Assembly: GCF_000027125.1 (NCBI RefSeq)
Contig: NC_017626.1
Reading direction: 5' to 3' (one strand)
Origin: Escherichia coli 042
GTDB lineage: Bacteria > Pseudomonadota > Gammaproteobacteria > Enterobacterales > Enterobacteriaceae
Length of the DNA: 64,000 nucleotides
The notes under the pieces were generated by a model. It searched no databases, had not been told where the DNA came from, and saw only the letters and a program-made list of their open reading frames with translations. Made by a program: the position numbers and the translations under genes. Positions 2,402 to 42,788 of this stretch are shown here, piece by piece. Each line of letters opens with the position of its first letter. The first letter of the stretch is position 1.

Positions 2402-5465
<3,064 letters not shown>

Positions 5466-5518
5466 GCGGATTGAGATGTGGACTGAATATCTACAGTCCA
5501 CATCAAGATCGTGTCCGC

Positions 5519-12698: not shown

Positions 12699-12894
12699 AA
12701 ATTGCCCGTTTGTTAACCATTTGTTTGCAAACGGGCATGACTCCTGACGTTTATTTCTGCCTTTTATTCCTTTTACACTTGTTTTTATGAAGCCCTTCAC
12801 AGAATTGTCCTTTCACGATGCCGTCTCTATGATGATTGATGTTAATTAACAATGCATTTACCAATAACAAACATATAAATCACAGGAGTCGCCC

Positions 12895-23602: not shown

Positions 23603-24142
23603 ATGACTGAAACGATAAAAGTAAGCGAATCACTTGAATTACATGCTGTTGCAGAAAATCACGTCACACCTCTTTATCAGTTAATCTGTAAAAATAAAAC
23701 CTGGTTACAGCAGTCGCTAAACTGGCCGCAGTTTGTTCAAATTGAAGAGGACACACGAAAAACGGTGCAGGGCAATGTAATGTTGCATCAACGCGGCTAT
23801 GCCAAAATGTTCATGATTTTCAAAGAAGATGAACTTATCGGCGTTATCTCGTTTAATCGTATTGAACCACTGAATAAAACCGCTGAAATCGGCTACTGGC
23901 TGGACGAATCTCATCAGGGGCAGGGGATCATTTCTCAGGCGCTGCAGGCATTGATTCATCATTATGCTCAGTCTGGTGAACTTAGACGCTTCGTGATCAA
24001 ATGTCGGGTGGACAATGCGCAAAGCAACCAGGTCGCTTTGCGCAATGGTTTTATCCTTGAAGGTTGCCTGAAACAGGCTGAGTTTCTGAATGATGCCTAT
24101 GATGATGTGAACTTATACGCGCGTATTATCGATTCACAATAA
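23603..24142 (+). CDS. rimL: Ribosomal-protein L7/L12 serine acetyltransferase (GNAT)
   Basis: 179-aa [23 protein letters not shown]... with GNAT motif [11 protein letters not shown]. Confidence 0.9.
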
Positions 24143-25237: not shown

Positions 25238-26230
25238 ATGCAGAGCGATAAAGTGCTCAATTTGCCGGCAGGCTACTTTGGTATTGTGTTGGGGACGATA
25301 GGGATGGGATTTGCCTGGCGCTATGCCAGCCAGGTTTGGCAGGTCAGCCACTGGTTAGGGGATGGGCTAGTGATTCTGGCGATGATCATCTGGGGATTAT
25401 TGACTAGCGCATTTATTACCCGACTCATACGCTTTCCGCATAGCGTGCTGGCGGAAGTGCGTCATCCAGTGATGAGCAGTTTTGTGAGTTTGTTTCCGGC
25501 AACGACGATGCTGGTGGCGATTGGTTTTGTTCCGTGGTTTCGCCCACTGGCGGTGTGCCTGTTCAGTTTTGGCGTCGTGGTGCAACTGGCTTATGCCGCC
25601 TGGCAAACTGCGGGATTATGGCGCGGATCTCATCCTGAAGAAGCTACCACGCCTGGACTGTATCTGCCGACAGTTGCCAACAACTTTATCAGCGCAATGG
25701 CCTGTGGTGCATTGGGCTACACCGACGCTGGTCTGGTGTTTTTAGGCGCAGGCGTTTTCTCATGGTTAAGCCTGGAACCGGTGATCTTGCAGCGTCTGCG
25801 CAGTTCGGGAGAATTACCCACGGCGCTGCGGACATCACTCGGCATTCAGCTCGCTCCTGCGCTGGTGGCCTGTAGTGCCTGGCTGAGCGTCAACGGCGGC
25901 GAGGGTGACACGCTGGCGAAAATGCTTTTCGGTTATGGGCTGCTGCAACTGCTGTTTATGCTACGTCTGATGCCATGGTATCTCTCCCAGCCATTTAATG
26001 CTTCATTCTGGAGTTTCTCGTTCGGCGTATCTGCACTGGCAACCACCGGTTTGCATCTGGGGAGTGGCAGCGATAATGGATTTTTCCATACGCTGGCGGT
26101 GCCGCTGTTTATCTTTACCAATTTTATAATTGCAATACTGCTCATCCGTACTTTCGCGCTTCTGATGCAGGGGAAATTGTTAATCAGAACCGAGCGCGCC
26201 GTTTTAATGAAAGCTGAGGACAAAGAATGA
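25238..26230 (+). CDS. tehA: Tellurite resistance / dicarboxylate-type transporter TehA
   Basis: ORF from 25130; start placed at [19 protein letters not shown] (330 aa); ~10 TM helices. Confidence 0.9.
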
Positions 26231-26820
26231 TCATTCGTGACGAAAACTATTTTACTGATAAGTATGAATTAACCCGCACACACTCTGAAGTACTGGAAGC
26301 GGTGAAAGTGGTTAAACCCGGTAAAACGCTGGATCTGGGCTGTGGCAATGGTCGTAATAGTCTTTACCTGGCAGCCAATGGTTATGAAGTTGACGCATGG
26401 GATAAAAATGCCATGAGTATCGCCAACGTCGAGCGTATTAAATCCATTGAAAATCTGGATAATTTACACACCCGGGTCGTTGATCTGAATAACCTTACGT
26501 TTGATGGGCAATACGATTTTATTCTTTCGACTGTGGTGCTGATGTTCCTTGAGGCTAAAACCATCCCAGGGCTGATTGCCAATATGCAACGTTGCACTAA
26601 ACCTGGCGGTTACAACCTGATTGTGGCGGCGATGGATACCGCTGATTATCCATGTACCGTCGGCTTCCCGTTTGCCTTCAAAGAGGGAGAATTACGTCGA
26701 TATTACGAAGGCTGGGAGATGGTGAAATACAATGAAGACGTCGGCGAGCTGCACCGCACCGACGCCAACGGTAATCGTATTAAACTGCGTTTCGCCACGA
26801 TGCTGGCACGTAAAAAATAA
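26227..26820 (+). CDS. tehB: Tellurite methyltransferase TehB
   Basis: 197-aa ORF with SAM-binding motif [11 protein letters not shown]; start overlaps tehA stop. Confidence 0.94.
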
Positions 26821-26982
26821 CCTGGTAAGAACAAGGCGCGTGAAAATTCCCCACGCTGAGATGGTCTACTGTTCTTCTTTTCGGTAAGCATAATTTTTAT
26901 CGAATGGATGTGAAATTAATCACAGTAGTCGAAGTTTTTTAGCAGCTTAACTTACTGAAATTTAACTACTGATGATTGACTT

Positions 26983-27024
26983 AGCCCCTTTTTCGGCATT
27001 GACTATGTCGTCTGAAAAGGGGCT
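26983..27024. promoter_or_regulatory. Perfect 10-bp inverted repeat upstream of ydcL
   Basis: agcccctttt (26983..26992) and aaaaggggct (27015..27024) separated by 22 nt, about 100 bp upstream of ydcL. Confidence 0.3.
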
Positions 27025-27122
27025 GAAAAATTTATTTTCACCAACACTTTTTTTGCCACAACACGAAGCGGCGCTTTTTGCTATAACTTAGAAAGTAATA
27101 TAATCATCTCAGGAAACTATTC

Positions 27123-27791
27123 ATGCGTACCACATCAATTGCGAAAGTTGCAGCTTTATGCGGCTTGTTGGCTCTGTCTGGTTGTGCCTCTAAAATCACC
27201 CAGCCAGATAAATATTCTGGTTTTTTAAACAATTACTCTGATTTAAAAGAAACAACCTCAGCAACAGGTAAACCTGTTTTACGTTGGGTAGACCCGAGTT
27301 TTGATCAAAGCAAATATGACAGCATCGTCTGGAACCCAGTCACTTATTATCCGGTACCGAAACCATCTACCCAGGTAGGGCAGAAAGTTCTGGATAAAAT
27401 TTTGAGTTATACCAACACCGAAATGAAAGAAGCGATTGCGCAGCGTAAACCACTGGTTACCACCGCTGGGCCGCGTAGTCTGATTTTCCGTGGGGCCATT
27501 ACCGGTGTTGATACCAGCAAAGAAGGGCTGCAATTCTATGAAGTGGTTCCTGTCGCATTAGTGGTCGCGGGGACGCAAATGGCGACGGGCCACCGTACCA
27601 TGGATACTCGCCTGTATTTTGAAGGTGAGCTGATTGATGCAGCTACTAATAAACCGGTTATCAAAGTCGTTCGTCAGGGCGAAGGTAAAGACCTGAATAA
27701 CGAAAGTACGCCAATGGCTTTCGAAAATATTAAACAAGTTATTGATGACATGGCGACCGATGCCACCATGTTTGACGTTAACAAAAAGTAA
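27123..27791 (+). CDS. ydcL: Lipoprotein YdcL
   Basis: 222-aa ORF with lipobox LALSGC. Confidence 0.9.
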   Translation: MRTTSIAKVAALCGLLALSGCASKITQPDKYSGFLNNYSDLKETTSATGKPVLRWVDPSFDQSKYDSIVWNPVTYYPVPKPSTQVGQKVLDKILSYTNTEMKEAIAQRKPLVTTAGPRSLIFRGAITGVDTSKEGLQFYEVVPVALVVAGTQMATGHRTMDTRLYFEGELIDAATNKPVIKVVRQGEGKDLNNESTPMAFENIKQVIDDMATDATMFDVNKK

Positions 27792-27825
27792 TTCCAGCCG
27801 CGCCATCGTAAGATGGCGCTTTTTA

Positions 27826-29001
27826 TTATCGGTTTCTGTGAGCGATTAAATTCAACACCACGTAACAAACGCCTCCGGCAATTAATCCCCAGAACGCAGA
27901 ACCAATCCCGACCAGCGTCAATCCACTTGCCGTTACCAGAAATGCCACCACCGCCGCGTCGCGCTCACGCTCATTATGCAGCGCCTGATACAAACTGCCG
28001 CCAATGGTACTCAACAGCGCCAGACCTGCCAGCATCTGGATCCAACTTACGGGCAGGGCAGCCATCATCCCGGTAATGGCACTACCAAAAAGACCTGCGA
28101 GCAAATAAAAAATGCCTGCAACGGCAGCTGCCAGCCAACGTTGATCTTTATCCGGATGCGCTTCCGGGCTTTGACAAATAGCCGCGGTGATTGCCGCAAT
28201 ACCGACGGAATAAACGCCGAAAGGGGAAAAAACAAGCGCCAGCAATCCAGTAAACACAATCAACGGCGAAACAGGAGCCGAATACCCGGCTGCTTTCATT
28301 GCTGCGATACCTGGAGCGTTTTGCGATGCCATCGTCACCAGAAAAAGGGGGAGTGCAACGCTCAGACTGTGAGCAAACGAAAAATCAGGGGTAATATAAG
28401 TGGGGAGAACGGGTTTAAAGACAACATCATTTGTGACAACGTCACCTTGCGCCATAACGATCACGATCCCAATAATCATCGCGGCAATTACCGCATAGCG
28501 CGGCGCAACGGCCCTGGTTGCCAGCCATACCAGCAACATACTGCCACACAACGTAAATTGACCATCCAGACTGGCAAACGCCTGTAAACCAAAGCGTAAT
28601 AAAATCCCGGCAAGCATTGCTGCCGCAAGCGAGTGCGGAATAATGCGCATCAGACGAGCAAAGAGTCCCGTTATGCCGCAGAGGACTATTAACGCGTTGG
28701 TGACAATAAAAACGCCGATGGCTTCGTTAAGTGTTAGTCCCTGTAATCCGGTGACCAACAAAGCCGCGCCAGGCGTTGACCATGCGGTGAGAACAGGTAC
28801 GCGATACCATAATGTCAGAGTCAGCGTACTGACGCCCATTGCCAGCCCCAGCGCCGTCATCCAGCCAGAGATTTGTGCAGTGGTGGCTCCGGCGACAATC
28901 GCTGCTTGCCAGATTATTGCCGCTGAACTGGCGTAGCCAATTAATACCGCCAGAAACCCCGCCAGTAGCGTGGGTGGAGGAATAGAAAACAGACGCATAG
29001 T
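27826..29001 (-). CDS. ydcO: BenE-family inner membrane transporter YdcO
   Basis: ORF extends to 29259; start placed at MRLFSIPPPTLLAGFLAVLIGY (391 aa); multi-TM. Confidence 0.88.
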   Translation of the reverse strand, partial: TMRLFSIPPPTLLAGFLAVLIGYASSAAIIWQAAIVAGATTAQISGWMTALGLAMGVSTLTLTLWYRVPVLTAWSTPGAALLVTGLQGLTLNEAIGVFIVTNALIVLCGITGLFARLMRIIPHSLAAAMLAGILLRFGLQAFASLDGQFTLCGSMLLVWLATRAVAPRYAVIAAMIIGIVIVMAQGDVVTNDVVFKPVLPTYITPDFSFAHSLSVALPLFLVTMASQNAPGIAAMKAAGYSAPVSPLIVFTGLLALVFSPFGVYSVGIAAITAAICQSPEAHPDKDQRWLAAAVAGIFYLLAGLFGSAITGMMAALPVSWIQMLAGLALLSTIGGSLYQALHNERERDAAVVAFLVTASGLTLVGIGSAFWGLIAGGVCYVVLNLIAHRNR

Positions 29002-29089
29002 CACCTCGTGCGTTATAGCGTACAGGTACCGTAGCATTTGTCCGTTATAACGCACAAGTGATAAACTTCCGTTTTGCCGGAGGAGTCGC

Positions 29090-29626
29090 ATGGAAAATCT
29101 CGCTCGCTTTTTATCCACCACACTTAAACAACTACGCCAGCAGCGCGGCTGGAGTCTTTCGCGACTGGCCGAAGCGACAGGCGTTTCTAAAGCGATGTTA
29201 GGGCAGATTGAGCGTAATGAGTCCAGCCCGACGGTCGCGACATTATGGAAAATTGCCACCGGGTTGAATGTGCCATTTTCGACATTTATTTCTCCGCCGC
29301 AGTCCGCTACGCCTTCAGTTTATGATCCGCAACAGCAGGCGATGGTGATCACTTCGCTGTTTCCTTATGATCCACAACTCTGCTTTGAACACTTCTCGAT
29401 TCAGATGGCACCTGGTGCAATAAGTGAATCGACGCCCCATGAGAAGGGAGTAATCGAACATGTTGTCGTCATTGATGGGCAACTTGATCTGTGCGTTGAT
29501 GGTGAATGGCAGAGCCTTAATTGTGGAGAAGGCGCTCGATTTGCTGCAGACGTTACGCATGTCTATCGTAATGGTGGGGAGCAAATCGTACATTTTCATT
29601 CCCTCATCCATTACCCACGCAGTTAA
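29090..29626 (+). CDS. ydcN: XRE-family HTH / cupin-domain transcriptional regulator YdcN
   Basis: 178-aa ORF with N-terminal HTH (LRQQRGWSLSRLAEATGVSKAMLGQIERNES). Confidence 0.9.
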   Translation: MENLARFLSTTLKQLRQQRGWSLSRLAEATGVSKAMLGQIERNESSPTVATLWKIATGLNVPFSTFISPPQSATPSVYDPQQQAMVITSLFPYDPQLCFEHFSIQMAPGAISESTPHEKGVIEHVVVIDGQLDLCVDGEWQSLNCGEGARFAADVTHVYRNGGEQIVHFHSLIHYPRS

Positions 29627-33186: not shown

Positions 33187-33417
33187 TCAACGTTGTCCCG
33201 CTTCTGGTTTGCGCGATTTTTGCCAGTAAAAATGCTCGCGCAAACCTTCCGCCGACTCTTCCGCCACAGCACGCAATTCATCGCTGTCCGCTTCATGACG
33301 CAGTTGATGATCCACATTCTTTACCCACATAAATTCATGTCCTTTGTGCCCTGCCATGAGTTGTCCTGAGAACAGCGCACACGTTAATAAGACAACCGAT
33401 AACGCCTTCGTAAACAT
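33187..33417 (-). CDS. yncJ: DUF2554 family secreted protein YncJ
   Basis: 76-aa ORF MFTKALSVVLLTCALFSGQLMAGHKGHEF... with signal peptide. Confidence 0.85.
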   Translation of the reverse strand: MFTKALSVVLLTCALFSGQLMAGHKGHEFMWVKNVDHQLRHEADSDELRAVAEESAEGLREHFYWQKSRKPEAGQR

Positions 33418-42387: not shown

Positions 42388-42788
42388 TTATCTGTTCTGC
42401 ATGATAAATGGGCAAGATAACCAGTTCGGGGTTTGCAATTTCAATGGGACAGCGTCATCAAGGAGGTTGCAATCATCCTGCCATGCATATACTTTACGCC
42501 ATCTTTTTATATTTACTTTATTCCCTGAAAGTATAAAGCATTTATAGACTCCCGCGCGTCTAAAGTATTGATGATAGAAAAATGTGAAAACAAGGTTCCC
42601 TTTGAATCAGTAAGCTGTCTGTATAGACGACAGGAGGGGGATGTTTTCTACTTATTTCAATGTAGATGTCAGGAAAAAGAAGTAAATATTAAGGATAATG
42701 TTGTAAACCTGGAGAGTATGAGATGATCTTGCGTACTGTCAGAGCACTGATTTCTCTGACAGTACGTGCTGCGTGCAAAATCACTACA

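Follow-up and report, generated by a model that had tools for sequence, protein, structure and literature searches.

A conserved stem-loop between tehB and ydcL in Escherichia as a possible U-tract-less 3' element of the tehAB transcript

The spacer between tehB and ydcL in Escherichia coli contains an inverted repeat that forms the outer part of a stable predicted RNA hairpin, which is conserved within Escherichia and occupies the position at which other Enterobacteriaceae carry the terminator of the upstream gene. We judge the chances to be about even that this repeat forms a stem-loop in the RNA at the tehAB 3' end, which would work as a weak terminator and/or an exonuclease barrier insulating ydcL. 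It is most likely an unannotated but ordinary-looking intergenic stem-loop, and not a new kind of regulatory element.

All coordinates refer to the window, which is the whole 64-kb stretch of DNA that was analysed. Strain Ecol_316 matches bases 26700–27300 at 100%, some 5,400 further complete E. coli genomes do so at 95–99%, and the flanking genes were identified as tehB and ydcL through the 100% match to annotated E. coli chromosomes; RefSeq has no annotation at the hairpin site. In K-12 (L001/L086), IS609 (a tnpA remnant and insQ/tnpB) lies immediately 3' of ydcL; the window strain has no IS609 ORF at 27792–27830, and ydcO comes directly after ydcL. Comparisons between species draw on a YdcL scan that took one genome per species and gave 80 loci, of which six are Escherichia lineages, namely the window type, L006 (a close relative of E. 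coli), L007–L009 (cryptic or related lineages) and L010 (E. albertii). The features of the locus are as follows.

26227–26820, + strand: tehB coding sequence, with its stop at 26820; the hairpin begins 163 nt later
26975–26981, + strand: ATTGACT direct repeat, whose second copy (26998–27004) lies in the hairpin loop; neither copy varies within Escherichia
26981–27026, + strand: full predicted RNA hairpin, with a 13-bp outer stem, 3-nt bulge, 6-bp inner stem and 5-nt loop
26983–26992, + strand: left arm AGCCCCTTTT of the perfect repeat, 5' side of the outer stem
26994–27010, + strand: predicted inner stem-loop CGGCAU-UGACU-AUGUCG within the 22-nt spacer, with one G-U pair; E. coli and L006 only
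27015–27024, + strand: right arm AAAAGGGGCT of the perfect repeat, 3' side of the outer stem
27025–27040, + strand: tail GAAAAATTTATTTTC, an A-run and then a T-rich run, leaving the stem without a direct U-tract
27047–27062, + strand: T-tract and GCCACAAC box, 5' of the ydcL −10 and outside the hairpin; TTTTTTGYCACAAC in most of the 80 species
27079–27087, + strand: putative extended −10 TGCTATAAC of the ydcL promoter, with a C just before TATAAC, sigma-S-like
27123–27791, + strand: ydcL coding sequence (DUF3313 lipoprotein), with its ATG at 27123

The two arms of the repeat are 100% complementary and 22 nt apart, and the ydcL ATG is 99 nt 3' of the right-arm end. The earlier note on this DNA had the coordinates, sequence and 22-bp spacer of the repeat right, and the distance measured here agrees with its placing of the repeat between tehB and ydcL, about 100 bp before the ydcL start. 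On its own, the perfect 10-bp repeat is only modestly above chance for a 64-kb scan, since the window contains seven perfect inverted repeats (arms of at least 10 bp, spacers of 3–40 nt) compared with 2.1 ± 1.25 in first-order Markov simulations. The fuller hairpin structure is clearly non-random, because its folding energy (z = −6.1), its rank among the hairpins of the window (9 of 136) and its conservation above the neutral rate in the genus all set it apart.

Of the remaining perfect inverted repeats (arms of at least 10 bp) in this window scan, five lie at 5475–5504, 12703–12737, 24016–24044, 33206–33246 and 42732–42766, and several of these resemble terminator hairpins. A further one, GTGCGTTATA...TATAACGCAC at 29008–29055, has a 28-nt spacer and falls between the divergent ydcO, on the minus strand, and an ORF of 178 codons (29090–29626) whose length is that of YdcN/SutR; it could be an operator of the regulator encoded by that adjoining ORF.

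When the + strand is folded as RNA, the perfect repeat is extended by U-G and U-A pairs at its base and by a U-G pair at its top to form the 13-bp outer stem, and together with the inner stem this gives a nearly continuous 19-bp hairpin of −24.4 kcal/mol at 26981–27026. Dinucleotide shuffles of the same sequence fold at −9.4 ± 2.4 kcal/mol, from which the z-score given above derives, and none of 200 shuffles was as stable. The ranking covers all 46-nt windows of the 64 kb, in which 136 loci form hairpins, and the high place is reached though the DNA is A+T-rich. The fold of the − strand is weaker in E. coli (−16.7 kcal/mol); this asymmetry in folding energy between the strands is gone in L007 and L010. 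A hairpin with a long loop had been suggested before, and the hairpin is upheld while the long loop is not, as the 22-nt spacer of E. coli itself pairs in the predicted fold, leaving 13 + 6 bp and a loop of 5 nt. In the Escherichia lineages other than E. coli and L006, the outer stem alone is retained and the inner pairing shifts register; in L007–L010 the inner stem is not retained and the loop region is 20–22 nt, compared with the 5-nt loop of E. coli if the inner stem forms. A weaker alternative hairpin can be drawn between UUUUUCGGC and GCUGAAAAA (26989–97 with 27022–30), with UUUAUUUUC directly after it, although the main hairpin, with which this pairing would compete, is far more stable. 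Scanning 26000–28000 against Rfam 15 (E ≤ 10) gave matches at chance level only, the best of which scored 17.8 bits against a 70-bit threshold and belonged to an unrelated family.

A 96-nt query around the hairpin has a single match site in each of 5,406 genomes out of 5,426 complete E. coli genomes, in 2,019 of them identically, and the copy number has a median of 1 and reaches at most two places. A dispersed repeat or mobile element was considered and is ruled out by this single copy per genome. Two E. coli loci depart from the common form. In APEC O2-211 (L002), a 36-bp complex tandem duplication at about 585–625 (window 26987–27009) affects the left arm and loop, with GCCCCTTTTTCGGCA and TTTTTCGGCATTGACTATGTC each repeated, and looks like replication slippage at a palindrome. 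In ET210 (L087), one partial and one complete copy of IS1 at 2568–3700 (window ~27022) sit inside the right arm and part the hairpin from ydcL, a natural disruption of the arrangement.

The hairpin is present in all six Escherichia lineages, that is, in five besides the window type. The outer-stem core GCCCCUUUU/AAAAGGGGC is almost invariant in E. coli, the four cryptic or related lineages and E. albertii. The left-arm core GCCCCTTTT is found in every Escherichia lineage, with a C>T change in L009 (U-G on the + strand) and a bulged C in L008, and AAAGGGG in the right arm is invariant in eight Escherichia sequences. One-sided changes in the outer stem are compatible with G-U pairing on the + strand (C-G to U-G in L009, U-A to U-G in L006), the base pair of the stem, 26982:27025, varies among U-G, U-A and C-G, and the stem of L006 has shifted register by one base with 11 pairs kept. 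The pair A26983-U27024 is confined to E. coli-type sequences (3 of 8 alignment rows), so the perfect 10 bp is, judging from the alignment, an E. coli feature and the conserved core is 9 bp. Standard pairs make up 90.8% of all pair cells in the Escherichia alignment. At this low divergence covariation is not significant, as changes on both sides are seen in two pairs, a level matched by 75 of 500 shuffles, and RNAalifold finds no compensatory pair in the Escherichia alignment.

Purifying selection was assessed in five lineages (the window type and L007–L010) against four-fold degenerate sites of the flanking genes, with the following results.

Four-fold degenerate sites of tehB and ydcL, neutral proxy: 58 of 177 invariant (33%)
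Hairpin block, 26975–27026: 39 of 54 columns invariant, P = 3.5e-9 versus neutral
22-nt spacer alone: 16 of 23 columns invariant, P = 3e-4 versus neutral
tehB-proximal 85 nt of the intergenic spacer: 32 of 85 invariant, P = 0.2, neutral level
ydcL promoter segment: 37 of 39 invariant, P = 4.1e-16 versus neutral

Within the hairpin, CATTGAC-TAT at the core of the loop does not vary across the genus, and the readings offered here do not fully explain the invariance of the loop CATTGACTAT and of the upstream ATTGACT. L006 (Escherichia sp. MOD1-EC7003, 2327–2500) has a tehB-ydcL spacer of just 175 nt, in which a 128-bp deletion has taken the tehB-proximal part together with a CRP-like site; the hairpin is kept about 30 nt after the tehB stop and is the sole structure left between tehB and the ydcL promoter. 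A plausible layout of the spacer thus proposed runs from a near-neutral tehB-proximal segment through a conserved CRP-like site and the conserved stem-loop to a sigma-S-type ydcL promoter.

The ydcL promoter is strikingly conserved across about 80 species of Enterobacteriaceae, with a T-run bearing GYCACAAC followed by TTTGCTATAAC, some 35–45 nt before the ATG. Its sequence suggests a sigma-S-type promoter, and genomic SELEX placed a peak of RpoS holoenzyme in the tehB>ydcL spacer (PMC5493296). The upstream box may be an activator or UP-like element, because it lies about 23 nt 5' of the −10, which is too far for a normal −35; box and −10 region form a direct repeat, TTTTTGCCACAAC / TTTTTGCTATAAC.

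Conservation across Enterobacteriaceae had been put forward as the check on the repeat, and the outcome is divided: the repeat is conserved in Escherichia, while other Enterobacteriaceae carry different hairpins instead. The Escherichia hairpin sequence was not found outside the genus in the loci of the 80 Enterobacteriaceae species. In most of these species, the most stable hairpin 5' of ydcL ends 49–62 nt short of the −10 box, irrespective of whether tehB or a different gene precedes it, and the corresponding distance in E. coli is 52–54 nt. In Enterobacter, Leclercia, Lelliottia, Raoultella, Yokenella, Trabulsiella and others, the hairpin upstream of ydcL is a canonical terminator, with four to eight U among the first eight tail bases; Citrobacter and Salmonella arizonae/diarizonae have another 12-bp hairpin at this site (CUGCGUUCAGCA...UGCUGAGCGCAG), with an A-rich tail as in E. 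coli. By position, the E. coli hairpin corresponds to the terminator of the upstream gene in other Enterobacteriaceae. A stable hairpin at a fixed distance 5' of the ydcL promoter is accordingly a feature of the family, its sequence turning over between genera, which is the pattern of terminator evolution and not of operator evolution.

The E. coli hairpin itself is not a canonical intrinsic terminator. It provides a stem-loop on the sense strand, but fails the definition because its tail GAAAAAUUUAUUUUC, with 2 U in the first 8 nt after the stem, has no U-tract (~7–9 nt), and a scan with the terminator consensus did not call it. The view that it is not a typical intrinsic terminator is therefore borne out, and the related statement that no T-tract follows holds for the first 6 nt after the repeat (GAAAAA), beyond which a T-rich run, TTTATTTTC, begins at 27031. 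The d'Aubenton-Carafa score, in a re-implementation that uses ViennaRNA energies and gives approximate values, is −57 to −63 for the E. coli hairpin compared with +24 to +57 for those of Yokenella, Leclercia and L076. The hairpin does have the architecture of a U-tract-less 3' stem-loop, being stable, devoid of a U-trail and downstream of the last gene of its unit. Nearer tehB, the segment 26824–26900 contains only weak A-U-rich hairpins before a T-run; these folds vary among strains and lineages, K-12 lacking the outer stem, and no better tehAB terminator can be named there. The Term-seq supplementary tables that were searched list no 3' end for tehB, ydcL or coordinates 15023xx, the corresponding region of K-12 being NC_000913.3 1,502,317–1,502,375; expression of tehAB may be too weak for such an end to show.

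If the repeat acts as a stem-loop at the end of the tehAB RNA, the hairpin would form on the + (sense) strand where the tehA-tehB unit ends, directly before the ydcL promoter region. Two modes of action are proposed because the hairpin has no U-tract. It could serve as an inefficient U-tract-less terminator or a pause hairpin, or it could block 3'-to-5' exonucleases, thereby setting the tehAB mRNA 3' end and making it more stable; either mode, or both, would lessen read-through into the putative sigma-S-type ydcL promoter. This reading is consistent with the + strand fold, the kept stem, the conserved block, the retention of the hairpin in L006, the equivalent position in other genera and the single copy. 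Counting against it are the lack of a direct U-tract, a distance of 163 nt past the tehB stop, which is farther than usual, the empty Term-seq result, the non-significant covariation and the lost strand asymmetry in L007/L010, and an unvarying loop sequence is not something that a plain terminator requires.

The invariance of the loop bears on a second explanation, in which the block is a DNA-level site for a regulator or other protein acting on the ydcL promoter, at about −70 to −115, with the arms and/or the two ATTGACT repeats being recognised. In its favour, conservation in Escherichia exceeds the neutral rate over the entire block with its 22-bp spacer, neither CATTGACTAT nor the ATTGACT 5' of the stem varies, and the position would suit an upstream activator. 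Published transcriptomes also show that ydcL expression depends on rob and on stress conditions, being down in a rob mutant (PMC7537768). A Mar/Sox/Rob box was looked for on account of that fall and was rejected, as no marbox with ≤3 mismatches occurs in the spacer and the window shows no enrichment of the pattern. From centre to centre, the half-sites are separated by 32 bp, which is unusual for a dimer and departs from a spacing of one or two helical turns; the sole SELEX report found for this spacer in open-access text concerns RNA polymerase-RpoS, and the ChIP-exo supplementary data for 34 y-gene regulators have no peak naming tehB or ydcL. Furthermore, genera with a nearly unchanged ydcL promoter and upstream box lack the repeat and have unrelated hairpins in its place, and the changes in the arms are of the G-U type, which preserves RNA pairing while altering the DNA sequence. 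We consider a regulator site unlikely on these grounds, and the suggestion of a dimeric regulator-binding site finds no support in the spacing of the half-sites, in the SELEX record or in the fate of the repeat outside Escherichia, where it is not kept with the promoter. Open-access literature on tehB, ydcL, SutR/YdcN, Hfq, ProQ and RIL-seq contained nothing on the hairpin element.

It is similarly improbable that the repeat has no present function, being either the relic of a decayed terminator or a chance palindrome preserved by its nearness to the constrained ydcL promoter. Chance alone would give about two perfect 10-bp repeats in 64 kb, the absent U-tract and non-significant covariation would fit decay, and the disruptions in APEC O2-211 (the 36-bp duplication) and ET210 (IS1) occur without obvious loss of the locus. 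However, conservation of the block is well above the rate at four-fold sites (P = 3.5e-9) while the neighbouring tehB-proximal spacer is neutral, the stem survives both a register shift (L006) and a wobble change (L009), and about 5,400 of the 5,426 E. coli genomes have the hairpin.

Upstream of the hairpin, at 26909–26924, lies a perfect CRP core, TGTGA-N6-TCACA (TGTGAAATTAATCACA), the only perfect match in the 64-kb window. This CRP-like site is 3' of tehB and about 180 nt 5' of the presumed ydcL start; 17 of its 21 columns are invariant in five Escherichia lineages, and it is deleted in L006. On the minus strand, a promoter-like TTCACA-16-TATGCT (26914–26887) overlaps it, and a terminator-like hairpin, GCGTGGGGAATTTTCACGC (26856–26838), lies opposite to tehB. 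A Shigella flexneri sRNA prediction, 'Ssr15', has been placed in the spacer on the strand opposite tehB, with a blank RT-PCR column where others have 'Yes' (PMC4782007, Table 1).

An Escherichia-specific transcript, either an sRNA or a long ydcL leader, could start 3' of the CRP-like site with the hairpin as its core, in which case the invariant apical loop would be a contact surface for an RNA or protein partner. The conserved CRP core 60–75 nt 5' of the hairpin and the invariant loop would suit such a transcript, as would the T-rich run 6 nt past the stem and the alternative UUUUUCGGC/GCUGAAAAA hairpin abutting UUUAUUUUC. We think this very unlikely, since the CRP-like site has no conserved −10 at a class I or class II spacing (TAACTT, the candidate, reads TAACTG, CAAGTC or TAACCC in other lineages), L006 has the hairpin without the CRP-like site, an Rfam match is absent and no sRNA has been reported here except the Ssr15 prediction on the opposite strand. 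A CRP-dependent + strand promoter feeding the hairpin was rejected for the first two of these reasons, and coding by a 39-codon ORF at 26972 was rejected because 1-nt indels break it in L008, L010 and O157. Somewhat more broadly, there is a slim chance that the hairpin, its apical CAUUGACUAU and the upstream ATTGACT form the core of an Escherichia-specific regulatory module, be it an sRNA, a leader of ydcL or an element that a protein recognises as DNA or RNA. If so, the module might be linked to the CRP-like site 60–75 nt upstream and couple carbon status to sigma-S-dependent ydcL. The invariant loop is the only part of the hairpin that hints at something more specific in this way.

Returning to the stem-loop at the tehAB 3' end, its importance beyond annotation is small. 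Should tehAB RNA indeed be terminated or stabilised by it, with no U-tract involved, it would add one more non-canonical 3' stem-loop to those of E. coli, a class that is poorly characterised.

The closest known systems include canonical terminators such as those of Enterobacter, Leclercia, Yokenella and Raoultella, which share with the E. coli hairpin a stable G+C-containing stem-loop on the sense strand 3' of the gene and, at ydcL, the same place, their 3' end lying about 50–60 nt 5' of the −10 box. The E. coli hairpin differs from them in having an A-run instead of the U-tract, a long stem (19 bp with a bulge) that is half A-U, and a location 163 nt past the stop. A palindromic operator of a dimeric factor would likewise present a perfect 10-bp inverted repeat 5' of a promoter, but the repeat described here has a 22-bp spacer and half-site centres 32 bp apart, is not conserved with the promoter outside Escherichia and has no known binder. 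REP/BIME elements resemble the hairpin as intergenic palindromes between co-oriented genes that could stabilise the upstream mRNA; they occur in many copies per genome, whereas the hairpin is single-copy, has no REP consensus and matches nothing in Rfam. 'I-shaped' terminators without a U-trail, and protective hairpins that bound the trimmed transcripts of Rho-dependent termination, have reportedly been described by Mitra et al. 2009 and Dar & Sorek 2018. Members of that class would have an mRNA 3' end at the hairpin base that depends on Rho and/or exonucleases, while the tehAB hairpin is known from its sequence and predicted fold; such U-tract-less 3' stem-loops are, like the E. coli hairpin and its counterparts in Citrobacter and Salmonella, stable, without a U-tail and located past the coding region.
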